Source: Ptychomitrium polyphyllum (lineage: Eukaryota). From it: a DNA stretch of 64,000 nucleotides. This document shows positions 1-63,045 of this stretch, in pieces (position 1 is the stretch's first letter; each line of letters opens with the position of its first letter). The notes under the pieces were generated by a model that was given only the letters and a program-made list of their open reading frames with translations, was not told the origin of the DNA and made no database searches. The stretch covers positions 10,416,001 through 10,480,000 of the forward strand of contig OZ316776.1 of the NCBI GenBank assembly GCA_973851085.1, given 5' to 3'. Position numbers and translations under genes: made by a program.

Positions 1-3000
1 CTATAAAAGTAGCTGCAAGGATGAACACCCAGATAGGTCTAAAGTTGTATAGCCTTCAACTCTTCAGTTTATCTGGAAGTTGCTCTAACGATGTACACCA
101 TTGTAGGTTCAAGGAAGTAAGAGCCTTCAACTTTCTTATTTGGTGTGGAAGTTGCAGCAAGGATGAACACGTAAATAGGTCCAAAGACGTAAGAGCCTTC
201 AACTATCCAATTTGTTGTGGAAGTTGCTGCAAGGATGAACACCTTGATAGGTCCAAGGCGTAAGAGCCTTCAACTCTCCAATTTGCTCTGAAAGTTGCTG
301 CAAGATGAACACCTTGATAGGTCCAAGGACATAAGAGCCTTCAACTCTCCAATTTGCTGTGGAAGTTGCTACAAGGATGAACACCCAGATAGGTCCAAGG
401 AAGTGAGAGCCTTCAACTCTCCAATTTGCTGTCGTAGTTGCTGCAAAAATGAACACCTTGATAGGTCCAAGGACATAAGAGCCTTCAACTCTCCAATTTG
501 CTGTAAAAGTTGCGGCAAGGATTAACACCTAGATAGGTCCAAGGACGTAGGAGCCTTCAACTCTCCAATTTGCTATGGAAGTAGCTGCAAGGATGAACAC
601 CCAGATAGGTCCAAGGCGTAAGAGCCTTCAATTCTCCAATTTTCTGTGGAAGTTGCTGCAAGGATGAACACCCAGATAGGTCCAAGGACATAAGAGCCTT
701 CAACTCTCCAATTTGCTGTGGAAGTTGCTGCAAGGATGAACACCCAGATAGGTCCAAGGACGTAAGAGCCTTCAACTCTCCAATTTGTTGTGGAAGTTGC
801 TGCAAGGATGAACACCCAGATAGGTCCAAGGACGTAAGAGCCTTCAACTCTCCAATTTGTTGTCGAAGTTGCTGCAAGGATGAACACCCAGATAGGTCCA
901 AGTAAGTAAGAGCCTTCAACTCTCTAATTTGCTGTGGAAGTTGCTGCAAGGATAAACACCTAGATAGGTCCAAGAACGTAAGAGCCTTCAACTCTCCAAT
1001 TTGCTGTGGAAGTTGCTGCAGGGATGAACACCCAGATAGGTCCAAGGACGTAAGAGCTTTCAACTCTCCAATTTGTTGTGGAAGTTGCTGCAAGGATGAA
1101 CACCCAGATATGTCCAAGGAAGTAAGAGCCTTCAACTCTCTAATTTGCTGTGGAAGTTGCTGCAAGGATAAACACCTAGATAGGTCCAAGGACGTAAGAG
1201 CCTTCAACTCTCCAATTTGCTGTGGTAGTTGCAGCAAGGATTAACACCCAGATAGGTCCAAGGACGTAAGAGCCTTCAACTCTCCAATTTGCTGTGGAAG
1301 TTGCTGCAGGGATGAACACCCAGATAGGTCCAAGGACGTAAGAGCTTTCAACTCTCCAATTTGTTGTGGAAGTTGCTGCAAGGATGAACAACCAGATAGG
1401 TCCAAGGACGTAAGAGCCTTCAACTCTCCAATTTGCTGTGGAAGTTGCTGCAAGGATAAACACCTAGATAGGTCCAAGGACGTAAGAGCCTTCAACTCTC
1501 CAATTTGCTGTGGTAGTTGCAGCAAGGATTAACACCCAGATAGGTCCAAGGACGTAAGAGCCTTCAACTCTCCAATTTGCTGTGGTAGTAGCTGCAGGGA
1601 TGTTCATCCAGATAGGTCCAAGGACGTAAGAGCCTTCAACTCTCCAATCTGTTGTGGAAGTTGCTGCAAGGATGAACACCCAGATATGTCCAAGGAAGTA
1701 AGAGCCTTCAACTCTCTAATTTGCTGTGGAAGTTGCTGCAAGGATAAACACCTAGATAGGTCCAAGGACGTAAGAGCCTTCAACTCTCCAATTTGCTATG
1801 GAAGTAGCTGCAAGGATGAACACCCAGATAGGTCCAAAGTTGTAAGAGCCTTCAACTCTTCAGTTTATCTGGAAGTTGCTCTAACGATGTACACCATTGT
1901 AGGTTCAAGGAAGGAAGAGCCTTCAACTCTCCAATTTGCTATAAAAGTAGCTGCAAGGATGAACACCCAGATAGGTCTAAAGTTGTATAGCCTTCAACTC
2001 TTCAGTTTATCTGGAAGTTGCTCTAACGATGTACACCATTGTAGGTTCAAGGAAGTAAGAGCCTTCAACTTTCTTATTTGGTGTGGAAGTTGCTGCAAGG
2101 ATGAACACCCAGATAGGACCAAGGACATAAGAGCCTTCAACTCTCCAATTTGTTGTGGAAGTTGCTGCAAGGATGAACACCCAGATATGTCCAAGGAAGT
2201 AAGAGCCTTCAACTCTCTAATTTGCTGTGGAAGTTGCTGCAAGGATAAACACCTAGATAGGTCCAAGGACGTAAGAGCCTTCAACTCTCCAATTTGCTGT
2301 GGAAGTTGCTGCAAGGATGAACACCCAGATAGGACCAAGGACATAAGAGCCTTCAACTCTCCAATTTGCTGTAGAAGTTGCTGCAAGGATAAACACCTAA
2401 ATAGGTCCAAGGAAGTAAGAGCCTTCAACTCTCCAATTTGCTGTGGAAGTTGCTGCAAGGATGAACACCATAGGTCCAAGGACATAAGAGCCTTCAACTC
2501 TCCAATTTGCTGTGGAAGTTGCGGCAAGGATTAACACCTAGATAGGTCTAAGGAAGTAAGAGCCTTCAACTCTCTAATTTGCTGTGGAAGTTGCTGCAAG
2601 GATAAACACCTAGATAGGTCCAAGGACATAAGAGCCTTCAACTCTCCAATTTGCTGTGGAAGTTGCTGCAAGGATGAACACCCAGATAGGTCCAAGGACG
2701 TAAGAGCCTTCAACTCTCCAATTTGTTGTGGAAGTTGCTGCAAGGATGAACACCCAGATAGGTCCAAGGACGTAAGAGCCTTCAACTCTCCAATTTGCTG
2801 TGGAAGTTGCTGCAAGGATGAACTCCCAGATATGTCCAAGGAAGTAAGAGCCTTCAACTCTCCAATTTGCTGTGGAAGTTGCTGCAAGGATAAACACCCA
2901 GATAGGTCCAAGCACGTAAGAGCCTTCAACTCTCCAATTTGCTATGGAAGTAGCTGTAAGGATGAACACCCAGATAGGTCCAAGGACAAAAGAGCCTTCA

Positions 3001-6000
3001 ACTCTCCAATTTGTTGTGGAAGTTGCTGCAAGGCTGAACACCCAGATATGTCCAAGGAAGTAAGAGCCTTCAACTCTCTAATTTGCTGTGGAAGTTGCTG
3101 CAAGGATAAACACCTAAATAGGTCCAAGGACGTAAGAGCCTTCAACTCTCCAATTTGTTGTGGAAGTTGCTGCAAGGATGAACACCCAGATAGGTCCAAG
3201 GACGTAAGAGCCTTCAACTCTCCAATTTGTTGTGGAAGTTGCTGCAAGGATGAACACCCAGATATGTCCAAGGAAGTAAGAGCCTTCAACTCTCTAATTT
3301 GCTATAGAAGTTGCTGCAAGGATAAACACCTAAATAGGTCCAAGGAAGTAAGAGCCTTCAACTCTCTAATTTGCTGTGGAAGTTGCAGCAAGGATAAACA
3401 CCTAAATAGGTCCAAGGACGTAAGAGCCTTCAACTCTCCAATTTGCTGTGGAAGTTGCTGCAAGGATGAACACCCAGATATGTCCAAGGAAGTAAGAGCC
3501 TTCAACTCTCCAATTTGCTATAGAAGTTGCTGCAAGGATAAACACCTAAATAGGTCCAAGGAAGTAAGAGCCTTCAACTCTCTAATTTGCTGTGGAAGTT
3601 GCAGCAAGGATAAACACCTAAATAGGTCCAAGGACGTAAGAGCCTTCAACTCTCCAATTTGCTGTGGAAGTTGCTGCAAGGATGAACACTCAGATAGGTC
3701 CAAGGACGTAAGAGCCTTCAACTCTCCAATTTGCTGTGGAAGTTGCGGCAAGGATTAACACCTAGATAGGTCCAAGGAAGTAAGAGCCTTCAACTCTCTA
3801 ATTTGCTGTGGAAGTTGCTGCAAGGTTAAACACCTAGATAGGTCCAAGGACATAAGAGCCTTCAACTCTCCAATTTGCTGTGGAAGTTGCTGCAAGGATG
3901 AACACCCAGATAGGTCCAAGGACGTAAGAGCCTTCAACTCTCCAATTTGTTGTGGAAGTTGCTGCAAGGATGAACACCCAGATAGGTCCAAGGATGTAAC
4001 ATCCTTCAACTCTCCAATTTGTTGTGGAAGTTGCTGCAAGGATGAACACCTAGATATGTCCAAGGAAGTAAGAGCCTTCAACTCTCTAATTTGCTGTGGA
4101 AGTTGCTGCAAGGATAAACACCTAGATAGGTCGAAGGACGTAAGAGCCTTCAACTCTCCAATTTGCTATGGAAGTTGCTGCAAGGATGAACACTCAGATA
4201 GGTCCAAGGACATAAGAGCCTTCAACTCTCCAATTTGCTGTGGAAGTTGCGGCAAGGATTAACACCTAGATAGGTCCAAGGAAGTAAGAGCCTTCAACTC
4301 TCCAATTTGCTGTGGAAGTTGCGGCAAGGATGAACACCTAGATAGGTCCAAGGACGTAAGAGCCTTCAACTCTCCAATTTGTTGTGGAAGTTGCTGCAAG
4401 GATGAACACCCAGATAGGTCCAAGGACGTAAGAGCCTTCAACTCTCCAATTTGTTGTGGAAGTTGCTGCAAGGATGAACACCCAGATAGGTCCAAGGATG
4501 TAAGAGCCTTGAACTCTCCAATTTGTTGTGGAAGTTGCTGCAAGGATGAACACCCAGATATGTCCAAGGAAGTAAGAGCCTTCAACTCTCTAATTTGCTG
4601 TGGAAGTTGCTGCAAGGATAAACACCTAGATAGGTCGAAGGACGTAAGAGCCTTCAACTCTCCAATTTGCTATGGAAGTAGCTGCAAGGATGAACACCCA
4701 GATAGGTCCAAAGTTATAAGAGCCTTCAACTCTTCAGTTTATCTGGAAGTTGCTCTAACGATGTACACCATTGTAGGTTCAAGGAAGGAAGAGCCTTCAA
4801 CTCTCCAATTTGCTATAAAAGTAGCTGCAAGGATGAACACCCAGATAGGTCCAAGGACGTAAGAGCCTTCAACTCTCCAATTTGCTGTGGAAGTTGCTGC
4901 AAGGATGAACACCCAGATAGGTTTAAGGACATAAGAGCCTTCAACTCTCGAATTTGCTGTGGAAGTTGCTGCAAGGATGGACATCCAGATAGGTCCAAGG
5001 ACATAAGAGCCTTCAACTCTCCAATTTGCTGTGGAAGTAGCTGCAAGGATGAACACCTAGATAGGTCCAAGGATGTAAGAGCCTTCAATTCTTCAATTTG
5101 CTATGGAAGTTGCTGCAAGGATGAACACCCAGATAGGTCCAAGTAAGTAAGAGCCTTCAACTCTCTAATTTGCTGTGGAAGTTGCTGCAAGGATAAACAC
5201 CTAGATAGGTCCAAGAACGTAAGAGCCTTCAACTCTGCAATTTGCTGTGGAAGTTGCTGCAGGGATGAACACCCAGATAGGTCCAAGGACGTAAGAGCCT
5301 TCAACTCTCCAATTTGTTGTGGAAGTTGCTGCAAGGATGAACACCCAGATAGGTCCAAGCACGTAAGAGCCTTCAACTCTCCAATTTGTTGTGGAAGTTC
5401 CTGCAAGGATGAACACCCAGATAGGTCCAAGGACGTAAGAGCCTTCAACTCTCCAATTTGCTGTGGAAGTTGCTGCAAGGATGAACACCCAGATAGGTTT
5501 AAGGACATAAGAGCCTTCAACTCTCGAATTTGCTGTGGAAGTTGCTGCAAGGATGGACATCCAGATAGGTCCAAGGACATAAGAGCCTTCAACTCTCCAA
5601 TTTGCTGTGGAAGTAGCTGCATGGATGAACACCTAGATAGGTCCAAGGATGTAAGAGCCTTCAATTCTTCAATTTGCTATGGAAGTTGCTGCAAGGATGA
5701 ACACCCAGATAGGTTTAAGGACATAAGAGCCTTCAACTCTCGAATTTGCTGCGGAAGTTGCTGCAAGGATGGACATCCAGATAGGTCCAAGGACATAAGA
5801 GCCTTCAACTCTCCAATTTGCTGTGGAAGTAGCTGCAAGGATGAACACCTAGATAGGTCCAAGGATGTAAGAGCCTTCAATTCTTCAATTTGCTATGGAA
5901 GTTGCTGCAATGATGAACATCCAGATAGGTCCAAGGACATAAGAGCTTTCAACTTTCCAATTTGCTGTGGTAGTTGCAGCAAGGATTAACACCTAGATAG

Positions 6001-9000
6001 GTCCAAGGACATAAGAGCCTTCAACTCTCCAATTTGTTGTGGAAGTTGCTGCAAGGATGAACACCCAGATAGGTCCAAGTAAGTAAGAGCCTTCAACTCT
6101 CTAATTTGTTGTGGAAGTTGCAGCAAGGATGAACACCCAGATAGGTCCAAGGACGTAACAGCCTTCAACTCTCCAATTTGCTGTGGAAGTTGCTGCAAGG
6201 ATGAACACCCAGATAGCTCTAAGGTTATAAGAACCTTCAACTCTCCAATTTTCTGTGGAAGTTGCTGCAAGGATAAACACTTAGATAGGTCCAAGGACGT
6301 TGGAGCCTTCAACTCTCCAATTTGCTATGGAAGTAGCTGCAAGGATGAACAATCAGATAGGTCCAAGGCGTAAGAGCCTTCAACTCTCCAATTTTCTGTG
6401 GAAGTTGCTGCAAGGATGAACATCCAGATAGGTCCAAGGACATAAGAGCCTTCAACTCTCCAATTTGCTGTGGAAGTTGCGGCAAGGATTAACACCTAGA
6501 TAGGTCCAAGGAAGTAAGAGCCTTGAACTCTCCAATTTGCTATGGAAGTAGCTGCAAGGATGAACACCCAGATAGGTTTAAGGACATAAGAGCCTTCAAC
6601 TCTCGAATTTGCTGCGGAAGTTGCTGCAAGGATGGACATCCAGATAGGTCCAAGGACATAAGAGCCTTCAACTCTCCAATTTGCTGTGGAAGTAGCTGCA
6701 AGGATGAACACCTAGATAGGTCCAAGGATGAAAGAGCCTTCAATTCTTCAATTTGCTATGGAAGTTGCTGCAATGATGAACATCCAGATAGGTCCAAGGA
6801 CATAGGAGCTTTCAACTTTCCAATTTGCTGTGGTAGTTGCAGCAAGGATTAACACCTAGATAGGTCCAAGGACATAAGAGCCTTCAACTCTCCAATTTGT
6901 TGTGGAAGTTGCTGCATGGATGAACACTCAGATAGGTCCAAGGACGTAAGAGCCTTCAACTCTCCAATTTGTTGTGGAAGTTGCTGCAAGGATGAACACC
7001 CAGATAGGTCCAAGCACGTAAGAGCCTTCAACTCTCCAATTTGTTGTGGAAGTTGCTGCAAGGATGAACACCCAGATAGGTCCAAGTAAGTAAGAGCCTT
7101 CAACTCTCTAATTTGCTGTGGAAGTTGCTGCAAGGATAAACACCTAGATAGGTCCAAGAACGTAAGAGCCTTCAACTCTCCAATTTGCTGTGGAAGTTGC
7201 TGCAGGGATGAACACCCAGATAGGTCCAAGGACGTAAGAGCCTTCAACTCTCCAATTTGTTGTGGAAGTTGCTGCAAGGATGAACACCCAGATAGGTCCA
7301 AGCACGTAAGAGCCTTCAACTCTCTAATTTGTTGTGGAAGTTGCTGCAAGGATAAACACCCAGATAGGTCCAAGGACGTAAGAGCCTTCAACTCTCCAAT
7401 TTGCTGTGGAAGTTGCTGCAAGGATGAACACCCAGATAGGTTTAAGGACATAAGAGCCTTCAACTCTCGAATTTGCTGTGGAAGTTGCTGCAAGGATGGA
7501 CATCCAGATAGGTCCAAGGACATAAGAGCCTTCAACTCTCCAATTTGCTGTGGAAGTTGCTGCATGGATGAACACCCAGATAGGTCCAAGTAAGTAAGAG
7601 CCTTCAACTCTCCAATTTGTTGTGGAAGTTGCTGCAAGGATGAACACCCAGATAGGTCCAAGGACGTAAGAGCCTTCAACTCTCCAATTTGCTGTGGAAG
7701 TTGCTGCAAGGATGAACACCCAGATAGGTTTAAGGACATAAGAGCCTTCAACTCTCGAATTTGCTGTGGAAGTTGCTGCAAGGATGGACATCCAGATAGG
7801 TCCAAGGATGTAAGAGCCTTCAACTCTCCAATTTGCTGTGGAAGTAGCTGCAAGGATGAACACCTAGATAGGTCCAAGGATGTAAGAGCCTTCAATTCTT
7901 CAATTTGCTATGGAAGTTGCTGCAATGATGAACATCCAGATAGGTCCAAGGACATAAGAGCTTTCAACTTTCCAATTTGCTGTGGTAGTTGCAGCAAGGA
8001 TTAACACCTAGATAGGTCCAAGGACATTAGAGCCTTCAACTCTCCAATTTGTTGTGGAAGTTGCTGCAAGGATGAACACCCACATAGGTCCAAGTAAGTA
8101 AGAGCCTTCAACTCTCTAATTTGCTGTGGAAGTTGCAGCACGGATGAACACCCAGATAGGTCCAAGGACGTAACAGCCTTCAACTCTCCAATTTGCTGTG
8201 GAAGTTGCTGCAAGGATGAACACCCAGATAGCTCTAAGGTTATAAGAACCTTCAACTCTCCAATTTTCTGTGGAAGTTGCTGCAAGGATGAACATTTAGA
8301 TAGGTCCAAGGACGTTGGAGCCTTCAACTCTCCAATTTGCTATGGAAGTAGCTGCAAGGATGAACACCCAGATAGGTCCAAGGCGTAAGAGCCTTCAACT
8401 CTCCAATTTTCTGTGGAAGTTGCTGCAAGGATGAACACCCAGATAGGTCCAAGGACATAAGAGCCTTCAACTCTCCAATTTGCTGTGGAAGTTGCGGCAA
8501 GGATTAACACCTAGATAGGTCCAAGGAAGTAAGAGCCTTCAACTCTCTAATTTGCTGTGGAAGTTGCTGCAAGGATAAACACCTAGATAGGTCCAAGGAA
8601 GTAAGAGCCTTCAACTCTCCAATTTGCTGTGGAAGTTGCTGCAGGGATGAACACCCAGATAGGTCCAAGGACATAAGAGCCTTCAACTCTCCAATTTGCT
8701 GTGGAAGTTGCTGCATGGATGAACACCCAGATAGGTCCAAGGACGTAAGAGCCTTCAACTCTCCAATTTGTTGTGGAAGTTGCTGCAAGGATGAACACCC
8801 AGATAGGTTTAAGGACATAAGAGCCTTCAACTCTCGAATTTGCTGCGGAAGTTGCTGCAAGGATGGACATCCAGATAGGTCCAAGGACATAAGAGCCTTC
8901 AACTCTCCAATTTGCTGTGGAAGTAGCTGCAAGGATGAACACCTAGATAGGTCCAAGGATGTAAGAGCCTTCAATTCTCCAATTTGCTATGGAAGTTGCT

Positions 9001-11744
9001 GCAATGATGAACATCCAGATAGGTCCAAGGACATAGGAGCTTTCAACTTTCCAATTTGCTGTGGTAGTTGCAGCAAGGATTAACACCTAGATAGGTCCAA
9101 GGACGTAACAGCCTTCAACTCTCCAATTTGTTGTGGAAGATGCTGCAAGGATGAACACCCAGATAGGTCCAAGTAAGTAAGAGCCTTCAACTCTCTAATT
9201 TGCTGTGGAAGTTGCTGCAAGGATGAACACCCAGATAGGTCCAAGGACGTAAGAGCCTTCAACTCTCCAATTTGTTGTGGTAGTTGCTGCAGGGATGAAC
9301 AGCCAGATAGGTCCAAGGAAGTGAGAGCCTTCAACTCTCTAATTTGCTGTGGAATTTGCTGCAAGGATAAACACCCAGATAGGTCCAAGGAAGTAAGAGC
9401 CTTCAACTCTCTAATTTGCTGTGGAAGTTGCTGCAAGGATAAACACCTAGATAGGTCCAAGGACGTAACAGCCTTCAACTCTCCAATTTGCTGTGGAAGT
9501 TGCTGCAAGGATGAACACCCAGATAGCTCTAAGGTTATAAGAACCTTCAACTCTCCAATTTTCTGTGGAAGTTGCTGCAAGGATGAACACTTATATAGGT
9601 CCAAGGACGTAGGAGCCTTCAAATCTGCAATTTGCTATGGAAGTAGCTGCAAGGATGAACACCCAGATAGGTCCAAGGCGTAAGAGCCTTCAACTCTCCA
9701 ATTTGCTGTGGAAGTTGCTGCAGGGATGAACACCCAGATAGGTCCAAGGACGTAAGAGCCTTTAACTCTCCAATTTGTTGTGGCAGTTGCTGCAAGGATG
9801 AACACCCAGATAGGTCCAAGCACGTAAGAGCCTTCAACTCTCCAATTTGTTGTGGAAGTTGCTGCAAGGATGAACACCCAGATAGGTCCAAGGACGTAAG
9901 AGCCTTCAACTCTCGAATTTGCTGTGGAAGTAGCTGCAAGGATGAACATCCAGATAGGTCCAAGGATGTAAGAGCCTTCAACTCTCCAATTTGTTGTGGA
10001 AGTTGCTGCAAGGATGAACACCCAGTTAAGTCCAAGGAAGTATGAGCCTTCAACTCTCCAATTTGCTATGGAAATTGCTGCAATGATGAACATCCAGATA
10101 GGTCCAAGGACATAGGAGCTTTCAACTTTCCAATTTGCTGTGGTAGTTGCAGCAAGGATTAACACCTAGATAGGTCCAAGGCGTAAGAGCCTTCAACTCT
10201 CCAATTTGCTGTGGAAGTTGCTGCAAGGATAAACACCGAGATAGGTCCAAGGACATAAGAGCCTTCAACTCTCCAATTTGCTGTGGAAGTTGCTGCAAGG
10301 ATGAACACCCAGATCGGTCCAAGGACGTAAGAGCCTTCAACTCTCCAATTTGTTGTGGAAGTTGCTGCAAGGATGAACACCCAGATAGGTCCAAGGACGT
10401 AAGAGCCTTCAACTCTCTAATTTGCTGTGGAAGTTGCTGTAGGGATGAACACCCAGATAGATCCAAGGACGTAAGAGCCTTCAACTCTCCAATTTGTTGT
10501 GGAAGTTGTTGCAAGGATGAACACCCAGATAGGTCCAAGGACGTAAGAGCCTTCAACTCTCTAATTTGCTGTGGAAGTTGCGGCAAGGATAAACACCTAG
10601 ATAGGTCCAAGGACGTAACAGCCTTCAACTCTCCAATTTGCTTTGGAAGTTGCTGCAAGGATGAACACCTAGATAGGTCCAAGGACGTAACAGCCTTCAA
10701 CTCTCCAATTTGCTGTGGAAGTTGCTGCAAGGATGAACACCCAGATAGGTCCAAGGACGTAAGAGCCTTCAACTCTCGAATTTGCTGTGGAAGTTGCTGC
10801 AAGGATGAACACCCAGATAGGTCCAAGGACGTAAGAGCCTTCAATTCTCCAATTTGTTGTGGAAGTTGCTGCAAGGATGAACACCCAGATAGGTCCAAGG
10901 ACGTAAGAGCCTTCAACTCTCCAATTTGTTGTGGAAGTTGCTGCAAGGATGAACACCCAGATAGGTCCAAGGACGTAAGAGCCTTCAACTCTCTAATTTG
11001 CTGTGGAAGTTGCTACAAGGATAAACACCTAGATAGGTCCAAGGACGTAACAGCCTTCAACTCTCTAATTTGCTGTGGAAGTTGCTGCAAGGATGAACAC
11101 CCAGATAGGTCTAAGGACGTAAGAGCCTTCAACTCTCCAATTTGTTGTGGAAGTTGCTGCAAGGATGAACACCCAGATAGGTCCAAGGACGTAAGAGCCT
11201 TCAACTCTCTAATTTGCTGTGGAAGTTGCTACAAGGATAAACACCTAGATAGGTCCAAGGACGTAACAGCCTTCAACTCTCCAATTTGCTGTGGAAGTTG
11301 CTGCAGGGATGAACACCCAGATAGGTCCAAGGACGTAAGAGCCTTCAATTCTCCAATTTGTTGTGGAAGTTGCTGCAAGGATGAACACCCAGATAGGTCC
11401 AAGGACGTAAGAGCCTTCAACTCTCCAATTTGTTGTGGAAGTTGCTGCAGGGATGAACACCCAGATAGGTCCAAGGACGTAAGAGCCTTCAACTCTCCAA
11501 TTTGCTGTGGAAGTAGCTGCAAGGATGAACACCCAGATAGGTCCAAGGATGTAAGAGCCTTCAACTCTCTAATTTGATGTGGAAGTTGCTGCAAGGATGA
11601 ACACCCAGTTAAGTCCAAGGAAGTATGAGCCTTCAATTCTTCAATTTGCTATGGAAGTTGCTGCAATGATGAACATCCAGATAGGTCCAAGGACATAAGA
11701 GCTTTCAACTTTCCAATTTGCTGTGGTAGTTGCAGCAAGGATTA

Positions 11745-14638
11745 ACACCTAGATAGGTCCAAGGCGTAAGAGCCTTCAACTCTCCAATTTGCTGTGGAAG
11801 TTGCTGCAAGGATGAACACCCAGATAGGTCCAAGGACGTAAGAGCCTTCAACTCTCTAATTAACTGTGGAAGTTGCTACAAGGATAAACACCTAGATAGG
11901 TCCAAGGACGTAACAGCCTTCAACTCTCCAATTTGCTGTGGAAGTTGCTGCAAGGATGAACACTCAGATAGCTCTAAGGTTATAAGAACCTTCAACTCTC
12001 CAATTTGCTGTGGAAGTTGCTGCAAGGATGAACACTTAGATAGGTCCAAGGACGTAGGAGCCTTCAACTCTCCAATTTGCTATGGAAGTAGCTGCAAGGA
12101 TGAACACCCAGATAGGTCCAAGGCGTAAGAGCCTTCAACTCTCCAATTTGCTGTGGAAGTTGCTGCAGGGATGAACCCCCAGATAGGTCCAAGGACGTAA
12201 GAGCCTTCAACTCTCTAATTTGCTGTGGAAGTTGGTCCAAGGATAAACACCGAGATAGGTCCAAGGACATGAGAGCCTTCAACTCTCCAATTTGCTGTGG
12301 AAGTTGCTGCAAGGATAAACACCCAGATAGGTCCAAGGACGTAAGAGCCTTCAACTCTCCAATTTGCTGTGGAAGTTGCGGCAAGGATTTACACCTAGAT
12401 AGGTCCAAGGACGTAAGAGCCTTCAACTCTCTAATTTGCTGTGGAAGTTGCTGCAAGGATGAACACCCAGAGATGTCCAAGGAAGTATGAACCTTCAACT
12501 CTCTAATTTGCTGTGGAAGTTGCTGCAAGGATAAACACCCAGATAGGTCCAAGGACGTAACAGCCTTCAACTCTCCAATTTTCTGTGGAAGTTGCTGCAA
12601 GGATGAACACTTAGATAGGTCCAAGGACGTAAGAGCCTTCAACTCTCCAATTTGCTGTGGAAGTTGCTGCAAGGATGAACACCCAGATAGGTCCAAGGCG
12701 TAAGAGCCTTCAATTCTCCAATTTTCTGTGGAAGTTGCTGCAAGGATGAACACCCAGATAGGTCCAAGGACATAAGAACCTTCAACTCTCCAATTTGCTG
12801 TGGAAGTTGCGGCAAGGATTAACACCTAGATAGGTCCAAGGAAGTAAGAGCCTTCAACTCTCCAATTTGCTGTGGAAGTTGCTGCAGGGATGAACACCCA
12901 GATAGGTCCAAGGACATAAGAGCCTTCAACTCTCCAATTTGCTGTGGAAGTTGCTGCATGGATGAACACCCAGATAGGTCCAAGGACGTAAGAGCCTTCA
13001 ACTCTCCAATTTGTTGTGGAAGTTACTGCAAGGATGAACACCCAGATAGGTCCAAGTAAGTAAGAGCCTTCAACTCTCTAATTTGCTGTGGAAGTTGCTG
13101 CAAGGATAAACACCTAGATAGGTCCAAGAACGTAAGAGCCTTCAACTCTCCAATTTGCTGTGGAAGTTGCTGCAGGGATGAACACCCAGATAGGTCCAAG
13201 GCGTAAGAGCCTTCAACTCTCCAATTTGCTGTGGAAGTTGCTGCAGGGATGAACACCCAGATAGGTCCAAGGACGTAAGAGCCTTCAACTCTCTAATTAA
13301 CTGTGGAAGTTGCTACAAGGATAAACACCTAGATAGGTCCAAGGACGTAACAGCCTTCAACTCTCCAATTTGCTGTGGAAGTTGCTGCAAGGATGAACAC
13401 CCAGATAGCTCTAAGGTTATAAGAACCTTCAACTCTCCAATTTGCTGTGGAAGTTGCTGCAAGGATGAACACTTAGATAGGTCCAAGGACGTAGGAGCCT
13501 TCAACTCTCCAATTTGCTATGGAAGTAGCTGCAAGGATGAACACCCAGATAGGTCCAAGGCGTAAGAGCCTTCAACTCTCCAATTTGCTGTGGAAGTTGC
13601 TGCAGGGATGAACACCCAGATAGGTCCAAGGACGTAAGAGCCTTCAACTCTCTAATTTGCTGTGGAAGTTGGTCCAAGGATAAACACCGAGATAGGTCCA
13701 AGGACATGAGAGCCTTCAACTCTCCAATTTGCTGTGGAAGTTGCTGCAAGGATAAACACCCAGATAGGTCCAAGGACGTAAGAGCCTTCAACTCTCCAAT
13801 TTGCTGTGGAAGTTGCGGCAAGGATTTACACCTAGATAGGTCCAAGGACGTAAGAGCCTTCAACTCTCTAATTTGCTGTGGAAGTTGCTGCAAGGATGAA
13901 CACCCAGATATGTCCAAGGAAGTATGAGCCTTCAACTCTCTAATTTGCTGTGGAAGTTGCTGCAAGGATAAACACCCAGATAGGTCCAAGGACGTAACAG
14001 CCTTCAACTCTCCAATTTTCTGTGGAAGTTGCTGCAAGGATGAACACTTAGATAGGTCCAAGGACGTAGGAGCCTTCAACTCTCCAGTTTGCTGTGGAAG
14101 TTGCTGCAAGGATGAACACCCAGATAGGTCCAAGGCGTAAGAGCCTTCAATTCTCCAATTTTCTGTGGAAGTTGCTGCAAGGATGAACACCCAGATAGGT
14201 CCAAGGACATAAGAACCTTCAACTCTCCAATTTGCTGTGGAAGTTGCGGCAAGGATTAACACCTAGATAGGTCCAAGGAAGTAAGAGCCTTCAACTCTCC
14301 AATTTGCTGTGGAAGTTGCTGCAGGGATGAACACCCAGATAGGTCCAAGGACATAAGAGCCTTCAACTCTCCAATTTGCTGTGGAAGTTGCTGCATGGAT
14401 GAACACCCAGATAGGTCCAAGGACGTAAGAGCCTTCAACTCTCCAATTTGTTGTGGAAGTTACTGCAAGGATGAACACCCAGATAGGTCCAAGTAAGTAA
14501 GAGCCTTCAACTCTCTAATTTGCTGTGGAAGTTGCTGCAAGGATAAACACCTAGATAGGTCCAAGAACGTAAGAGCCTTCAACTCTCCAATTTGCTGTGG
14601 AAGTTGCTGCAGGGATGAACACCCAGATAGGTCCAAGG
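11745..14638. repeat. Higher-order repeat, 1437-bp unit (20 monomers, three of 71 bp), 2 tandem copies
   Basis: Rare variants aattaactg, gttggtccaagg, gacatgagag and gatttacacc recur at +1437. ORF pairs 11876/13313, 12064/13501 and 12819/14256 all differ by 1437. Confidence 0.93.
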
Positions 14639-18189: not shown

Positions 18190-21100
18190 TTTGCTGTGGA
18201 AGTTGCTGCAAGGATGAACACCCAGATAGCTCTAAGGTTATAAGAACCTTCAACTCTCCAATTTTCTGTGGAAGTTGCTGCAAGGATGAACACTTAGATA
18301 GGTCCAAGGACGTAGGAGCCTTCAACTCTCCAATTTGCTATGGAAGTAGCTGCAAGGATGAACACCCAGATAGGTCCAAGGCGTAAGAGCCTTCAACTCT
18401 CCAATTTGCTGTGGAAGTTGCTGCAGGGATGAACACCCAGATAGGTCCAAGGTCGTAAGAGCCTTCAACTCTCCAATTTGCTGTGGAAGTTGCTGCAAGG
18501 ATGAACACCCAGATAGGTCCAAGCACGTAAGAGCCTTCAACTCTCCAATTTGTTGTGGAAGTTGCTGCAAGGATGAACACCCAGATAGGTCCAAGGACGT
18601 AAGAGCCTTCAACTCTCTAATTTGCTGTGGAAGTTGCTACAGGGATAAACACCGAGATAGGTCCAAGGACATAAGAGCCTTCAACTCTCCAATTTGCTGT
18701 GGAAGTTGCTGCAAGGATAAACACCCAGATAGGTCCAAGGACGTAAGAGCCTTCAACTCTCCAATTTGCTGTGGAAGTTGCGGCAAGGATTAACACCTAG
18801 ATAGGTCCAAGGACGTAAGAGCCTTCAGCTCTCTAATTTGCTGTGAAAGTTGCTGCAAGGATGAACACCCAGATATGTCCAAGGAAGTATGAGCCTTCAA
18901 CTCTCTAATTTGCTGTGGAAGTTGCTGCAAGGATAAACACCCAGATAGGTCCAAGGACGTAACAGCCTTCAACTCTCCAATTTTCTGTGGAAGTTGCTGC
19001 AAGGATGAACACTTAGATAGGTCCAAGGCGTAAGAGCCTTCAATTCTCCAATTTTCTGTGGAAGTTGCTGCAAGGATGAACACTTAGATAGGTCCAAGGA
19101 CATAAGAGCCTTCAACTCTCCAATTTGCTGTGGAAGTTGCGGCAAGGATTAACACCTAGATAGGTCCAAGGAAGTAAGAGCCTTCAACTCTCTAATTTGC
19201 TGTGGAAGTTGCTGCAAGGATAAACACCTAGATAGGTCCAAGGAAGTAAGAGCCTTCAACTCTCCAATTTGTTGTGGAAGTTGCGGCAGGGATGAACACC
19301 CAGATAGGTCCAAGGACATAAGAGCCTTCAACTCTCCAATTTGCTGTGGAAGTTGCTGCATGGATGAACACCCAGATAGGTCCAAGGACGTAAGAGCCTT
19401 CAACTCTCCAATTTGTTGTGGAAGTTACTGCAAGGATGAACACCCAGATAGGTCCAAGTAAGTAAGAGCCTTCAACTCTCTAATTTGCTGTGGAAGTTGC
19501 TGCAAGGATAAACACCTAGATAGGTCCAAGAACGTAAGAGCCTTCAACTCTCCAATTTGCTGTGGAAGTTGCTGCAGGGATGAACACCTAGATAGGTCCA
19601 AGGACGTAAGAGCCTTCAACTCTCCAATTTGTTGTGGAAGTTGCTGCAAAGATGAACACCCAGATAGGTCCAAGGACGTAAGAGCCTTCAACTCTCCAAT
19701 TTGTTGTGGAAGTTGCTGCAAGGATGAACACCCAGATAGGTCCAAGGACGTAAGAGCCTTCAACTCTCCAATTTGTTGTGGAAGTTGCTGCAAGGATGAA
19801 CACCCAGATAGGTCCAAGGACGTAAGAGCCTTCAACTCTCTAATTTGTTGTGGAAGTTGCTGCAAGGATAAACACCTAGATAGGTCCAAGGACGTAAGAG
19901 CCTTCAACTCTCCAATTTGTTGTGGAAGTTGCTGCAAGGATGAACACCCAGATAGCTCTAAGGTTATAAGAACCTTCAACTCTCCAATTTGCTGTGGAAG
20001 TTGCTGCAAGGATGAACACTTAGATAGGTCCAAGGACGTAGGAGCCTTCAACTCTCCAATTTGCTATGGAAGTAGCTGCAAGGATGAACACCCAGATAGG
20101 TCCAAGGCGTAAGAGCCTTCAACTCTCCAATTTGCTGTGGAAGTTGCTGCAGGGATGAACACCCAGATAGGTCCAAGGTCGTAAGAGCCTTCAACTCTCC
20201 AATTTGCTGTGGAAGTTGCTGCAAGGATGAACACCCAGATAGGTCCAAGCACGTAAGAGCCTTCAACTCTCCAATTTGTTGTGGAAGTTGCTGCAAGGAT
20301 GAACACCCAGATAGGTCCAAGGACGTAAGAGCCTTCAACTCTCTAATTTGCTGTGGAAGTTGCTACAGGGATAAACACCGAGATAGGTCCAAGGACATAA
20401 GAGCCTTCAACTCTCCAATTTGCTGTGGAAGTTGCTGCAAGGATAAACACCCAGATAGGTCCAAGGACGTAAGAGCCTTCAACTCTCCAATTTGCTGTGG
20501 AAGTTGCGGCAAGGATTAACACCTAGATAGGTCCAAGGACGTAAGAGCCTTCAGCTCTCTAATTTGCTGTGAAAGTTGCTGCAAGGATGAACACCCAGAT
20601 ATGTCCAAGGAAGTATGAGCCTTCAACTCTCTAATTTGCTGTGGAAGTTGCTGCAAGGATAAACACCCAGATAGGTCCAAGGACGTAACAGCCTTCAACT
20701 CTCCAATTTTCTGTGGAAGTTGCTGCAAGGATGAACACTTAGATAGGTCCAAGGCGTAAGAGCCTTCAATTCTCCAATTTTCTGTGGAAGTTGCTGCAAG
20801 GATGAACACTTAGATAGGTCCAAGGACATAAGAGCCTTCAACTCTCCAATTTGCTGTGGAAGTTGCGGCAAGGATTAACACCTAGATAGGTCCAAGGAAG
20901 TAAGAGCCTTCAACTCTCTAATTTGCTGTGGAAGTTGCTGCAAGGATAAACACCTAGATAGGTCCAAGGAAGTAAGAGCCTTCAACTCTCCAATTTGTTG
21001 TGGAAGTTGCGGCAGGGATGAACACCCAGATAGGTCCAAGGACATAAGAGCCTTCAACTCTCCAATTTGCTGTGGAAGTTGCTGCATGGATGAACACCCA

Positions 21101-45321: not shown

Positions 45322-46596
45322 TTACTGCAAGGATGAACACCCAGATAGGTCCAAGTAAGTAAGAGCCTTCAACTCTCTAATTTGCTGTGGAAGTTGCTGC
45401 AAGGATAAACACCTAGATAGGTCCAAGAACGTAAGAGCCTTCAACTCTCCAATTTGCTGTGGAAGTTGCTGCAAGGATGAACACCCAGATAGGCCCAAGC
45501 ACGTAAGAGCCTTCAACTCTCCAATTTGTTGTGGAAGTTGCTGCACGGATGAACACCCAGATAGGTCCAAGGACGTAAGAGCCTTCAACTCTCCAATTTG
45601 TTGTGGAAGTTGCTGCAAGGATGAACACCCAGATAGGTCCAAGGACGTAAGAGCCTTCAACTCTCCAATTTGTTGTGGAAGTTGCTGAAAGGATGAACAC
45701 CCAGATAGGTCCAAGGACGTAAGAGCCTTCAACTCTCTAATTTGCTGTGGAAGTTGCTGCAAGGATAAACACCTAGATAGGTCCAAGGACGTAACAGCCT
45801 TCAACTCTCCAATTTGCTGTGGAAGTTGCTGCAGGGATGAACACCCAGATAGGTCCAAGGACATAAGAGCCTTCAACTCTCCAATTTGTTGTGGAAGTTG
45901 CTGAAAGGATGAACACCCAGATAGGTCCAAGGACGTAAGAGCCTTCAACTCTCTAATTTGCTGTGGAAGTTGCTGCAAGGATAAACACCTAGATAGGTCC
46001 AAGGAAGTAAGAGCCTTCAACTCTCCAATTTGCTGTGGAAGTTGCTGCAGGGATGAACACCCAGATAGGTCCAAGGACATAAGAGCCTTCAACTCTCCAA
46101 TTTGCTGTGGAAGTTGCTGCATGGATGAACACCCAGATAGGTCCAAGGACGTAAGAGCCTTCAACTCTCCAATTTGTTGTGGAAGTTGCTGAAAGGATGA
46201 ACACCCAGATAGGTCCAAGGACGTAAGAGCCTTCAACTCTCTAATTTGCTGTGGAAGTTGCTGCAAGGATAAACACCTAGATAGGTCCAAGGACGTAACA
46301 GCCTTCAACTCTCCAATTTGCTGTGGAAGTTGCTGCAAGGATGAACACCCAGATAGGTCCAAGGACGTAAGAGCCTTCAACTCTCCAATTTGTTGTGGAA
46401 GTTGCTGAAAGGATGAACACCTAGATAGGTCCAAGGAAGTAAGAGCCTTCAACTCTCCAATTTGCTGTGGAAGTTGCTGCAGGGATGAACACCCAGATAG
46501 GTCCAAGGACATAAGAGCCTTCAACTCTCCAATTTGCTGTGGAAGTTGCTGCATGGATGAACACCCAGATAGGTCCAAGGACGTAAGAGCCTTCAA
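45322..46596 (-). other. Second-longest uninterrupted LRR-frame segment (424 aa), bounded by two copies of the CAA>TAA variant 1296 bp apart
   Basis: ORF track; gttactgc variants at ~45322 and ~46618; TTG start only. Confidence 0.6.
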
Positions 46597-49500
46597 CTCT
46601 CCAATTTGTTGTGGAAGTTACTGCAAGGATGAACACCCAGATAGGTCCAAGTAAGTAAGAGCCTTCAACTCTCTAATTTGCTGTGGAAGTTGCTGCAAGG
46701 ATAAACACCTAGATAGGTCCAAGAACGTAAGAGCCTTCAACTCTCCAATTTGCTGTGGAAGTTGCTGCAAGGATGAACACCCAGATAGGCCCAAGCACGT
46801 AAGAGCCTTCAACTCTCCAATTTGTTGTGGAAGTTGCTGCACGGATGAACACCCAGATAGGTCCAAGGACGTAAGAGCCTTCAACTCTCCAATTTGTTGT
46901 GGAAGTTGCTGCAAGGATGAACACCCAGATAGGTCCAAGGACGTAAGAGCCTTCAACTCTCCAATTTGTTGTGGAAGTTGCTGAAAGGATGAACACCCAG
47001 ATAGGTCCAAGGACGTAAGAGCCTTCAACTCTCTAATTTGCTGTGGAAGTTGCTTCAAGGATAAACACCTAGATAGGTCCAAGGACGTAACAGCCTTCAA
47101 CTCTCCAATTTGCTGTGGAAGTTGCTGCAAGGATGAACACCCAGATAGCTCTAAGGTTATAAGAACCTTCAACTCTCCAATTTTCTGTGGAAGTTGCTGC
47201 AAGGATGAACACTTAGATAGGTCCAAGGACGTAGGAGCCTTCAACTCTCCAATTTGCTATGGAAGTAGCTGCAAGGATGAACACCCAGATAGGTCCAAGG
47301 CGTAAGAGCCTTCAACTCTCCAATTTGATGTATAAGTTGCTGCAGGGATGAACACCCAGATAGGTCCAAGGACGTAAGAGCCTTCAACTCTCCAATTTGT
47401 TGTGGAAGTTGCTGCAAGGATGAACACCCAGATAGGTCCAAGCACGTAAGAGCCTTCAACTCTCCAATTTGTTGTGGAAGTTGCTGCAAGGATGAACACC
47501 CAGATAGGTCCAAGGACGTAAGAGCCTTCAACTCTCTAATTTGCTGTGGAAGTTGCTGCAGGGATGAACACCCAGATAGGTCCAAGGACGTAAGAGCCTT
47601 CAACTCTCCAATTTGTTGTGGAAGTTGCTGCAAGGATGAACACCCAGATAGGTCCAAGGACATAAGAGCCTTCAACTCTCCAATTTGCTGTGGAAGTTGC
47701 GGCAAGGATTAACACCTAGATAGGTCCAAGGACGTAAGAGCCTTCAACTCTCTAATTTGCTGTGGAAGTTGCTACAAGGATAAACACCGAGATAGGTCCA
47801 AGGACATAAGAGCCTTCAACTCTCCAATTTGCTGTGGAAGTTGCTGCAAGGATGAACACCCAGATAGGTCCAAGGACGTAAGAGCCTTCAACTCTCCAAT
47901 TTGTTTTGGAAGTTGCTGCAAGGATGAACACCCAGATAGGTCCAAGGACGTAAGAGCCTTCAACTCTCCAATTTGTTGTGGAAGTTGCTGCAAGGATGAA
48001 CACCCAGATATGTCCAAGGAAGTATGAGCCTTCAACTCTCTAATTTGCTGTGGAAGTTGCTGCAAGGATAAACACCCAGATAGGTCCAAGGACGTAACAG
48101 CCTTCAACTCTCCAATTTGCTGTGGAAGTTGCTGCAAGGATGAACACCCAGATAGCTCTAAGGTTATAAGAACCTTCAACTCTCCAATTTTCTGTGGAAG
48201 TTGCTGCAAGGATGAACACTTAGATAGGTCCAAGGACGTAGGAGCCTTCAACTCTCCAATTTGCTATGGAAGTAGCTGCAAGGATGAACACCCAGATAGG
48301 TCCAAGGCGTAAGAGCCTTCAATTCTCCAATTTTCTGTGGAAGTTGCTGCAAGGATGAACACCCAGATAGGTCCAAGGACATAAGAGCCTTCAACTCTCC
48401 AATTTGCTGTGGAAGTTGCGGCAAGGATTAACACCTAGATAGGTCCAAGGAAGTAAGAGCCTTCAACTCTCTAATTTGCTGTGGAAGTTGCTGCAAGGAT
48501 AAACACCTAGATAGGTCCAAGGAAGTAAGAGCCTTCAACTCTCCAATTTGCTGTGGAAGTTGCTGCAGGGATGAACACCCAGATAGGTCCAAGGACATAA
48601 GAGCCTTCAACTCTCCAATTTGCTGTGGAAGTTGCTGCATGGATGAACACCCAGATAGGTCCAAGGACGTAAGAGCCTTCAACTCTCCAATTTGTTGTGG
48701 AAGTTGCTGCAAGGATGAACACCCAGATAGGTCCAAGTAAGTAAGAGCCTTCAACTCTCTAATTTGCTGTGGAAGTTGCTGCAAGGATAAACACCTAGAT
48801 AGGTCCAAGAACAAAAGAGCCTTCAACTCTCCAATTTGCTGTGGAAGTTGCTGCAGGGATGAACACCCAGATAGGTCCAAGGACGTAAGAGCCTTCAACT
48901 CTCCAATTTGTTGTGGAAGTTGCTGCAAGGATGAACAGCCAGATAGGTCCAAGCACGTAAGAGCCTTCAACTCTCCAATTTGTTGTGGAAGTTGCTGCAA
49001 GGATCAACACCCAGATAGGTCCAAGGACGTAAGAGCCTTCAACTCTCTAATTTGCTGTGGAAGTTGCTGCAAGGATGAACACCCAGATAGGTTTAAGGAC
49101 ATAAGAGCCTTCAACTCTCGAATTTGCTGTGGAAGTTGCTGCAAGGATGGACATCCAGATAGGTCCAAGGACATAAGAGCCTTCAACTCTCCAATTTGCT
49201 GTGGAAGTAGCTGCAAGGATGAACACCTAGATAGGTCCAAGGATGTAAGAGCCTTCAATTCTTCAATTTGCTATGGAAGTTGCTGCAATGATGAACATCG
49301 AGATAGGTCCAAGGACATAAGAGCTTTCAACTTTCCAATTTGCTGTGGTAGTTGCAGCAAGGATTAACACCTAGATAGGTCCAAGGACATAAGAGCCTTC
49401 AACTCTCCAATTTGTTGTGGTAGTTGCTGCAGGGATGAACAGCCAGATAGGTCCAAGGAAGTGAGAGCCTTCAACTCTCTAATTTGCTGTGGAAGTTGCT

Positions 49501-52500: not shown

Positions 52501-52528
52501 CAATTTGCTGTGGAAGTTGCGGCAAGGA

Positions 52529-53821
52529 TTAACACCTAGATAGGTCCAAGGAAGTAAGAGCCTTCAACTCTCTAATTTGCTGTGGAAGTTGCTGCAAGGA
52601 TAAACACCTAGATAGGTCCAAGGAAGTAAGAGCGTTCAACTCTCCAATTTGCTGTGGAAGTTGCTGCAGGGATGAACACCCAGATAGGTCCAAGGACATA
52701 AGAGCCTTCAACTCTCCAATTTGCTGTGGAAGTTGCTGCATGGATGAACACCCAGATAGGTCCAAGGACGTAAGAGCCTTCAACTCTCCAATTTGTTGTG
52801 GAAGTTGCTGCAAGGATGAACACCCAGATAGGTCCAAGTAAGTAAGAGCCTTCAACTCTCTAATTTGCTGTGGAAGTTGCTGCAAGGATAAACACCTAGA
52901 TAGGTCCAAGAACGTAAGAGCCTTCAACTCTCCAATTTGCTGTGGAAGTTGCTGCAGGGATGAACACCCAGATAGGTCCAAGGACGTAAGAGCCTTCAAC
53001 TCTCCAATTTGTTGTGGAAGTTGCTGCAAGGATGAACAGCCAGATAGGTCCAAGGACGTAAGAGCCTTCAACTCTCCAATTTGCTGTATAAGTTGCTGCA
53101 GGGATGAACACCCAGATAGGTCCAAGGACGTAAGAGCCTTCAACTCTCCAATTCGTTGTGGAAGTTGCTGCAAGGATGAACACCCAGATAGGTCCAAGCA
53201 CGTAAGAGCCTTCAACTCTCCAATTTGTTGTGGAAGTTGCTGCAAGGATGAACACCCAGATAGGTCCAAGGACGTAAGAGCCTTCAACTCTCTAATTTGC
53301 TGTGGAAGTTGCTGCAGGGATGAACACCCAGATAGGTCCAAGGACGTAAGAGCCTTCAACTCTCCAATTTGTTGTGGAAGTTGCTGCAAGGATGAACACC
53401 CAGATAGGTCCAAGGACGTAAGAGCCTTCAACTCTCTAATTTGCTGTGGAAGTTGCTGCAGGGATGAACACCCAGATAGGTCCATGGACGTAAGAGCCTT
53501 CAACTCTCCAATTCGTTGTGGAAGTTGCTGCAAGGATGAACACCCAGATAGGTCCAAGCACGTAAGAGCCTTCAACTCTCCAATTTGTTGTGGAAGTTGC
53601 TGCAAGGATGAACACCCAGATAGGTCCAAGGACGTAAGAGCCTTCAACTCTCTAATTTGCTGTGGAAGTTGCTGCAGGGATGAACACCCAGATAGGTCCA
53701 AGGACAAAAGAGCCTTCAACTCTCCAATTTGTTGTGGAAGTTGCTGCAAGGATGAACACCCAGATAGGTCCAAGGACATAAGAGCCTTCAACTCTCCAAT
53801 TTGCTGTGGAAGTTGCGGCAA
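52529..53821 (-). other. Longest uninterrupted LRR-frame segment (430 aa, ~18 LRRs); open stretch between two TAA-variant monomers, not an independent gene
   Basis: ORF track. The start is a TTG inside the repeat, and both ends are set by the recurrent gattaacacc stop variant. Confidence 0.6.
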
Positions 53822-61560: not shown

Positions 61561-63008
61561 CTCTCCAATTTGCTGTGGAAGTTGCTGCAAGGATCAACAC
61601 CCAGATAGGTCCAAGGACGTAAGAGCCTTCAACTCTCTAATTTGCTGTGGAAGTTGCTGCAAGGATGAACACCCAGATAGGTTTAAGGACATAAGAGCCT
61701 TCAACTCTCGAATTTGCTGTGGAAGTTGCTGCAAGGATGGACATCCAGATAGGTCCAAGGACATAAGAGCCTTCAGCTCTCCAATTTGCTGTGGAAGTAG
61801 CTGCAAGGATGAACACCTAGATAGGTCCAAGGATGTAAGAGCCTTCAATTCTTCAATTTGCTATGGAAGTTGCTGCAATGATGAACATCGAGATAGGTCC
61901 AAGGACATAAGAGCTTTCAACTTTCCAATTTGCTGTGGTAGTTGCAGCAAGGATTAACACCTAGATAGGTCCAAGGACATAAGAGCCTTCAACTCTCCAA
62001 TTTGTTGTGGTAGTTGCTGCAGGGATGAACAGCCAGATAGGTCCAAGGAAGTGAGAGCCTTCAACTCTCTAATTTGCTGTGGAAGTTGCTGCAAGGATAA
62101 ACACCCAGATAGGTCTAAGGAAGTAATAGCCTTCAACTCTCCAATTTGCTGTGGAAGTTGCTGCAGGGATGAACACCCAGATAGGTCCAAGGACGTAAGA
62201 GCCTTCAACTCTCCAATTTGCTGTGGAAGTTGCTGCAAGGATGAACACCCAGATAGGCCCAAGCACGTAAGAGCCTTCAACTCTCCAATTTGTTGTGGAA
62301 GTTGCTGCAAGGATGAACACCCAGATAGGTCCAAGGACGTAAGAGCCTTCAACTCTCCAATTTGTTGTGGAAGTTGCTGCAAGGATGAGCACCCAGATAG
62401 GTCCAAGGACGTAAGAGCCTTCAACTCTCCAATTTGCTGTAGAAGTTGCTGCAAGGATGAACACCCAGATAGGTTTAAGGACATAAGAGCCTTCGACTCT
62501 CGAAATTGCTGTGGAAGTAGCTGCAAGGATGGACATCCAGATCGGTCCAAGGATGTAAAAGCCTTCAACTCTCCAATTTGCTGTGGAAGTAGCTGCATGG
62601 ATGAACACCCAGATAGGTCCAAGGACGTAAGAGCCTTCAACTCTCCAATTTGTTGTGGAAGTTGCTACAAGGATGAACACCCAGATAGGTCCAAAGTTGT
62701 AAGAGCCTTCAACTCTTCAGTTTATCTGGAAGTTGCTCTAACGATGTACACCATTGTAGGTTCAAGGAAGTAAGAGCCTTCAACTCTCCAATTTGTTGTG
62801 GAAGTTGCTGCAAGGATGAACACCCAGATAGGTCCAAGGACGTAAGAGCCTTCAACTCTCCAATTTGTTGTGGAAGTTGCTACAAGGATGAACACCCAGA
62901 TAGGTCAAGGGAAGTAAGAGCCTTCATTTCTCCAATTTGCTATGGAAGTTGCTGCAAGGATGAACACCCAGATAGGTCCAAGGACGTAAGAGCCTTCAAC
63001 TCTCCAAT

Positions 63009-63045
63009 TTGTGGCTACCAAACGTGGCTATTGTGGCTACCAAAC
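63009..63045 (+). repeat. Junction micro-duplication: TTGTGGCTACCAAAC x2 (63009-63023, 63031-63045) separated by a partial third copy GTGGCTA
   Basis: Read directly: ...ccaat-ttgtggctaccaaac-gtggcta-ttgtggctaccaaac-ctagc. Confidence 0.92.

Follow-up and report, generated by a model that had tools for sequence, protein, structure and literature searches.

The window, that is, the whole stretch of 64,000 nucleotides that was analysed, is occupied from position 7 to 63011 by a tandem array with a period of 72 bp (TRF, 875.9 copies, 92% matches), followed on the right by a short junction and a broken copy of GTF3C1. Segmentation resolved the array into 875 whole 72-bp-type units and a 66-nt partial unit with zero spacer, as the earlier note had described (about 875 units of 72 bp over more than 63 kb, without spacers), and the array continues past the left window edge. 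All units have the same orientation (876/876 blastn matches), and in the minus-strand translation one unit corresponds to one 24-residue LRR of the NLR type. No retrotransposon interruption was identified within the 63-kb array. Such a long, uninterrupted head-to-tail arrangement (63 kb, one orientation) is a defining trait of satellite DNA.

The units are less regular than the description "perfectly phased" had suggested, with 816 units of 72 bp, 58 of 71 bp and a single one of 69 bp among the 875 whole units. Likewise, the view that each unit is one 24-aa LRR holds for the unit as a type but not for every copy: a stop codon is located inside 173 of the 816 72-bp units, so that 643 of the 875 units are intact 72-bp LRR units and the remaining 232 are broken. 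One deletion is common to 50 units and one stop codon to 74. The longest stretch of intact, stop-free units covers 17 of the 875 units and occurs twice on the minus strand, at 45391–46614 (408 aa, P0001) and, according to the unit segmentation, at 52586–53809. Beyond the LRRs, no domain above the cut-off in P0001 was plausible as part of a receptor. The idea of a giant LRR gene was rejected, as a continuous open frame extends over 17 of the 875 units at most. We also observed that the consensus unit has other open frames, and that the array breaks every frame.

At the DNA level, 241 distinct unit variants were identified among the 875 units, 135 of which are singletons, and all four gametes were observed in 113 of 427 pairs of common array variants, which confirms the combinatorial variation noticed previously. 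Alleles that combine in ways specific to the array include M at codon 11, R at codon 17 and L at codon 19. The array is furthermore structured at a higher level. Seventeen pairs of duplicated blocks of 15–30 units show 99.8–100% identity, blocks of at least 15 units in this identity range take in 379 of the 875 units, and broken units have been copied along inside the blocks. The clearest higher-order duplications are located at approximately 18990–27330 on the minus strand, with lags of 58 and 24 units and blocks of 27–30 units that differ by 0–1 mismatch. Amplification in multi-unit blocks, another hallmark of satellites, is thus evident. A divergent block of two units at 62659–62801 (minus strand) stands apart: each unit has 12 differences from the consensus, with N-L-Q-W at the binding face and the loss of one base. 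Related copies are found near the left end, at about 4676–4818, 1802–2086 and 7–148. This block is likely left over from another kind of repeat that the source gene carried.

Some blocks of 15–27 units are duplicated exactly, as would be seen if the assembler had inflated a short LRR tail. The 241 distinct units argue against this, and so does the sequencing depth. The summed depth of the repeat contigs was about 14,400 times that of single-copy contigs in sequencing run X1 and 8,400 times in X2, figures from one sample that are uncorrected for short-contig inflation and should be read as orders of magnitude (about 2,800–4,800 times if inflated threefold). Repeat depth was also high in X3, a run with a different organism label. 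The comparison covered four of the eight runs listed (X1, X2, X3 and X7). No RNA dataset was listed as containing the unit, which carries no weight as to expression. Since the depth is thousands of times single-copy, the array is unlikely to be an assembly expansion, a concern for which the earlier note had proposed a depth check, and we consider an artefact extremely improbable. The high genomic copy number that characterizes satellite DNA is observed here. Related LRR units with at least 85% identity were present in the same runs. Their loose ends in X1–X3, inspected by eye, appear to encode H, N or E in codon 12 and either H or Y in codon 14, whereas 0 of the 875 array units have any of these residues there. 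An exact 20-nt scan of metagenome contigs returned two loci, both of which were single chance matches without repeats.

The right end of the array meets a direct repeat of 15 nt (junction at 63009–63045, plus strand; copies at 63009–63023 and 63031–63045), the first three bases of which overlap the array end. The repeat resembles a scar from template switching or microhomology repair. From 63024 to 64000 follows an intron-containing copy of GTF3C1 (TFIIIC subunit 1), which is 5'-truncated and broken, lies on the plus strand and is directed away from the array. Its best-matching exon spans 63043–63276, with further matches at about 63490–63550, 63687–63818 and 63934–63998, and it carries indels relative to other copies in the sequencing runs. 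Marchantia was the sole named match, with scores that fail to separate liverworts from Sphagnum. Flank and LRR both point to a bryophyte host; a liverwort was considered on account of Marchantia, but the Ceratodon matches of the LRR unit make a moss the most likely host. No NB-ARC or N-terminal receptor domain was identified in the 989 bases upstream of the array on the coding strand, which correspond to the GTF3C1 copy on the opposite strand, and no receptor expression site sharing array sequence is located at the visible right end within the window.

The substitutions in the array fit neutrality, and no protein constraint was detected. The distinct alleles comprise 34 synonymous, 83 non-synonymous and 8 stop changes, where the mutation spectrum alone would predict 32.1, 83.8 and 9.2. 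None of 15 context-stratified selection tests fell below P = 0.05; the smallest value (P = 0.051) was obtained for nonsense events on the spanning tree, where 19 were observed and 32.8 expected. The power of these tests is modest because 125 of the 216 possible alleles are already present. The general preservation of the frame by selection that silent cassettes would be expected to show was not observed, given the 232 broken units and the near-expected number of stop alleles. Amino-acid variability per unit position correlates with that in the tails of intact RNLs (Spearman 0.51, P = 0.012). The six binding-face positions hold 46% of the array variability, where a uniform spread would give 25% and intact genes reach 61%. 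However, this excess fades with context control (P = 0.11–0.53). The common binding-face variants are nearly all one base off the consensus. Observations that speak against the satellite reading are the 643 units that are still intact, the correlation with intact RNL tails, the raw excess at the binding face and the deficit of nonsense events.

The earlier note had also raised the possibility of a silent donor library, from which gene conversion copies array units into the tail of an intact NLR and diversifies its binding face in the style of vlsE or the lamprey VLRs. The unit is indeed one LRR, intact moss RNLs are made of the same kind of unit, and vls cassettes may themselves carry stops and frameshifts (PMC11499132); the raw binding-face excess and the marginal nonsense deficit also lean this way. 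Yet selection was not significant, a single binding-face type accounts for 414 of the 643 intact units, only 19 types occur at positions 14, 16, 17 and 19, and the neighbor at the visible end is the GTF3C1 pseudogene. Furthermore, the codon 12 and 14 residues seen by eye in the related units are absent from the array. Beyond the weak and non-significant lean at the binding face, the donor reservoir gained no positive support, and we regard it as very unlikely.

The mutation spectrum is biased towards C>T/G>A, for which 34 of 35 possible changes are present, as compared to 32–59% for the other five types. This bias suggests that the array is methylated. RNA-directed methylation occurs in plants, and a satellite of neutral origin could conceivably act back on immunity if small RNAs or heterochromatin silenced homologous NLR tails in trans. 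The related LRR units in the same runs would be candidate targets. The several base differences per related unit would however limit targeting, and we consider such trans-silencing very improbable.

The closest relatives of the unit were sought among 276 proteins, in which the best match to an array unit covers 19 of 24 residues (base-shuffled controls reached 9–12/24 in 40 of 40 shuffles), and a near-length protein search gave no closer unit. The top identities among the 120 long matches listed were obtained for P0043 from Ceratodon (67%), P0009 (64%) and P0092 from Ceratodon (62%), all of which contain RPW8, NB-ARC and LRR domains. The tails of seven moss-type RNL proteins consist of 7–16 units with 65–92% mean pairwise identity, so the assertion that the repeats of plant NLRs are mutually divergent fails for these closest relatives. 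As in the array, the unit in the Ceratodon proteins KC19_2G183700 (P0043) and KC19_6G015700 (P0092) is 24 aa long, with 18–19 of 24 residues identical, and their tails of 9–11 units show 76–92% internal identity. The Ceratodon RNLs differ in that they form open reading frames, contain RPW8 and NB-ARC domains and vary mainly at the binding face. The array is broken and domainless, and exceeds their tails about 80 times in length. Since RNL tails already contain 7–16 similar units, a moss RPW8-NB-ARC-LRR gene with a tail of near-identical repeats likely provided the seed of the array; the source gene itself was not found among the compared proteins, whose best unit reaches 19/24.

Taken together, we consider it probable that the array is a satellite of LRR-coding units under no detectable coding constraint. 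Its likely origin is a repeat tail in a moss gene of the RPW8-NB-ARC-LRR type, and it likely grew by block duplication after the receptor context was lost. The suggestion that one LRR had been amplified into a satellite is thereby supported. We hypothesize that amplification started from a receptor whose tail, like those of the Ceratodon RNLs, contained 7–16 similar units and was prone to unequal exchange. A piece of the tail may have been joined to the GTF3C1 pseudogene via repair, leaving the 15-nt duplication behind. Unequal crossing-over or rolling-circle amplification could then have spread blocks, broken units included, into thousands of units genome-wide. The array would now be heterochromatin, methylated as the C>T bias suggests, from which no protein is made.

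A second candidate comes from Physcomitrium patens, in which the satellite Pp21_215 has a listed size of 156,974 bp, a single large locus on Chr21 and a FISH signal (Kirov et al., 2018, PMC6302065). By eye, the 215-bp monomer in Table 3 of that paper reads as units of 72+72+71 bp, one of which is frameshifted, and these appear to share the LP..IG.L..L..L.L..C..L pattern of the array; the available text contains 0 occurrences of LRR, leucine or resistance, and leaves such an LRR reading of the satellite unremarked. The sequence of the Pp21_215 unit differs from that of the array unit, and the two are therefore probably independent in origin, which suggests that LRR satellites arose repeatedly in mosses. 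No match to the Physcomitrium-type unit was established among the compared proteins, a six-residue motif being present in 13 and absent from the one Physcomitrium protein that was checked. We found no description of an LRR-derived satellite in a search of the openly accessible literature, nor in the available part of PMC6947457. We also considered that the array has taken on a structural role, at the centromere or elsewhere, as its thousands of copies and higher-order blocks might indicate; a 162-bp centromeric satellite is described in a liverwort (PMC12885004) and two Pp21_215 loci sit in RLC5-rich regions (PMC6302065). However, the centromeres of Physcomitrium are retrotransposon-based (PMC12885004), the 63-kb array contains no retrotransposon, and we think such a role highly improbable.

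Our findings illustrate how a protein domain can give rise to satellite DNA in bulk, with the near-identical repeat tails of immune genes as convenient seeds. Should Pp21_215 be confirmed as an LRR satellite, mosses would have gone through this process two or more times. It could then be studied in a model plant whose genome is nearly complete and whose genes are easily targeted, where exchange with NLR genes, or their silencing by such arrays, would become directly testable. A bolder and, in our opinion, unlikely idea is that moss NLR tails repeatedly spawn LRR satellites on the 100-kb scale, such as the array and Pp21_215, which act back on the receptors as conversion donors or as sources of small RNAs that tune NLR expression. 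If true, this would add a satellite-based layer to plant immune variation. In any case, LRR satellites will inflate the LRR and NLR counts of bryophyte annotations, and masking is advised.

Lamprey VLR cassettes are contiguous, promoterless and coding. So are the vls cassettes of Borrelia, which resemble the array in this respect and in their tolerance of stops and frameshifts, but about 15 of them are located head-to-head with the expressed gene and selection keeps variation in their variable regions (PMC11499132), whereas the array contains at least 875 units with neutral variation and no adjacent receptor at the visible end. In fungal NLRs such as het-e/HNWD of Podospora, concerted evolution reshuffles near-identical repeats, both inside a gene and from one gene to another (Dyrka et al., 2014, PMC4986451), and by analogy a similar process was likely the engine inside the seed gene. 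The fungal NLRs with high internal conservation differ in that they contain WD, ANK or TPR repeats and are working genes under positive selection, with no detached satellite described in the available part of that study. The array also resembles in form the repeat-seeded satellites reviewed by Garrido-Ramos (2017, PMC5615363), which are likewise long, head-to-tail and amplified in blocks, and which differ in abundance among species. The seeds named there are rDNA spacers and transposons, whereas the seed of the array would be a protein-domain exon.

The array extends over positions 7-63011, where Tandem Repeats Finder gave a period of 72, 875.9 copies and 92% matches, and its LRR reading lies on the minus strand. 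Segmentation of this strand yielded 875 whole units and one 66-nt partial unit with no spacers or inserts, in agreement with the roughly 875 tandem units proposed in the earlier note, and all 876 of the 876 unit matches identified by blastn in the window have a single orientation. The unit was recognized in Pfam as a 24-residue NLR-type LRR, and the closest of 276 stored proteins agreed with it at 19 of 24 residues, compared with 9-12 for base-shuffled units in all 40 of 40 shuffles. The units had been described as perfectly phased, which proved incorrect, as the length is 72 bp for 816 units, 71 bp for 58 and 69 bp for one. They had also each been taken for one complete LRR; the unit does read as such, but only 643 of 875 are intact, with 17 units in the longest unbroken intact stretch, and 173 of the 816 72-bp units contain a stop codon. 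We consider it probable that the array is a real satellite with one NLR LRR as its unit, likely derived from a homogenised tail of a moss RPW8-NB-ARC-LRR receptor and now evolving neutrally.

Of the 120 long homologues listed, the stored proteins P0043 (KC19_2G183700; 67%), P0009 (64%) and P0092 (KC19_6G015700; 62%) had the highest identities; each has RPW8, NB-ARC and LRR domains, and two of them are from Ceratodon purpureus. Seven RPW8-NB-ARC-LRR proteins have tails of 7-16 units with 65-92% mean pairwise identity, and the seed was thus likely already a minisatellite-like tail. These tails resemble the fungal NLR repeats of high internal conservation in the available text of PMC4986451, and large NLR sets are described for mosses in that of PMC11218826. 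An NB-ARC-LRR protein from the flowering plant Ulmus minor (P0002) contains 25 units with 77% mean identity, which indicates that homogenised LRR tails are not restricted to mosses.

No NB-ARC domain was identified upstream of the LRR strand in the right end of the window, to position 64000. A truncated GTF3C1 copy is located at 63024-64000 on the plus strand; its exon at 63043-63273 matches three representatives, including a Marchantia protein in a cluster named GTF3C1, and further exons match land-plant GTF3C1. The copy begins mid-exon (5'-truncated), and frameshifting indels at 63042, 63513, 63535 and 63960 set it apart from other copies present in the sequencing runs; it is thus likely a pseudogene. 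The window sequence contains a 15-nt direct repeat at the junction (63009-63023 and 63031-63045) that resembles a repair scar. Together, the LRR and the flank point to a bryophyte host, most probably a moss. The summed flank depth in run X1 was ~950-6,700 versus ~350 per single contig, and thus the normally single-copy GTF3C1 is present several times in organism A; in organism F (run X7), one copy was seen, with ~90% identity in exons.

Depth was estimated from contigs of four of the eight listed runs (X1, X2, X3 and X7) on window 62600-64000. The ratio of summed repeat depth to single-copy contig depth was ~14,400-fold in X1 and ~8,400-fold in X2, both from one sample, which may be that from which the window came, and inflated by short contigs; a threefold correction gives ~2,800-4,800 units, and since summed depth is not copy number, only the order of magnitude counts. 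Far fewer copies by read depth would, according to the earlier note, have indicated assembly expansion. Repeat depths thousands-fold above single-copy level argue against such expansion and for more units than the window contains, and an assembly artefact is exceedingly improbable. Run X3, from a differently labelled organism, had 497 contigs on the repeat, 157 of them at 99% or above, and no flank contigs in window 62600-64000. X7 had a flank gene depth of 309 and a repeat depth of at most 39. Lone 20-nt matches in two metagenome contigs (L001 6001-6020 and L002 2141-2160) had no surrounding repeat and were attributed to chance.

The array contains 241 distinct unit sequences, and strings of units recur at lags including 58, 24, 47, 165 and 50 units. 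Seventeen block pairs of 15-30 units each are 99.8-100% identical and span 379 of the 875 units. Broken units were duplicated along with others, as seen from a codon 12 deletion common to 50 units, and TAA at codon 19 is common to 74 units. Of 427 pairs formed by common variants, 113 showed all four gametes, as expected if units exchange sequence or mutations recur. Diversity is higher in the left 12.6 kb than in the middle, and this fifth of the array (1-12588) is older-looking: bins in this segment contain 10-23 singleton units, compared with 1-9 in the rest of the array, and the number of differences per unit is 3.6-4.6, compared with 2.6-3.6. A divergent two-unit block with N-L-Q-W at the binding face is found at both window ends and resembles a remnant of a second type of repeat; since the right-end block recurs in 1-12588, the other array end may be located a short way past position 1.

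With 10 units of more than eight differences omitted, the array shows 125 of the 216 single-base alleles that are possible, and the numbers seen and expected from the mutation spectrum were 34 and 32.1 for synonymous, 83 and 83.8 for missense and 8 and 9.2 for nonsense alleles. For C>T/G>A, 34 of 35 possible changes were seen, as compared to 32-59% for other types, which suggests that the array DNA is methylated. Silencing of homologous NLRs in trans by the array is, in our judgement, improbable. Two results lean away from neutrality. First, residue variability along the unit is correlated with the variability in seven intact tails of moss type (Spearman 0.51, P=0.012), and six binding-face positions hold 46% of it, compared to 61% in intact genes and 25% under uniformity. 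Second, 19 nonsense events were placed on the spanning tree of units against 32.8 expected (P=0.051). When 15 tests for selection in the array were stratified by mutation type and sequence context (CG/CHG/CHH), no P value fell below 0.05; the binding-face excess gave P=0.11-0.53. A single binding-face type accounts for 414 of the 643 intact units. Co-option of the array as a structural satellite is rated as very unlikely.

The earlier note had offered two readings, an LRR satellite or a silent donor library for an intact receptor; the satellite reading is supported, but donor function gained no positive support and is likewise very unlikely. Related LRR units in loose ends of X1-X3 carry, as read by eye, H, N or E at codon 12 and either H or Y at codon 14, residues seen in 0 of 875 array units; should these related units belong to working receptors, the array is not the source of their variation. 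Also by eye, loose ends and joints of X1-X3 at 62770-62981 contain related LRR units in which binding-face codons carry multi-base changes and the framework carries synonymous ones, the pattern expected of working NLR tails or of other satellite subfamilies. The presence of broken units does not by itself refute a donor role, since vls cassettes tolerate stops (PMC11499132, available text). The same text lists linkage to an expression site, a preserved frame and focused variation as conserved vls features; here, no expression site was seen beside the array at the right end of the window, the frame is not generally preserved (643 of 875 units intact), and binding-face variation is in raw excess, though not significantly so after context control.

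The array is thus probably satellite DNA with a protein domain as its seed. The satellite seeds named in reviews are rDNA spacers and transposons (PMC5615363; PMC6947457, available text), and no description of an LRR-derived satellite was found in the literature searched. A candidate precedent is the Physcomitrium repeat Pp21_215, which is listed at 156,974 bp and has one large Chr21 locus and a FISH signal; LRR, leucine and resistance are not mentioned in the available text of that paper (PMC6302065). Read by eye, the monomer in its Table 3 appears to consist of three units of 72, 72 and 71 bp with the same LRR pattern as in the array, but with a different unit sequence. On this reading, Pp21_215 would represent an unnoticed precedent for an LRR satellite in a moss, and LRR-seeded satellites are perhaps recurrent in mosses.
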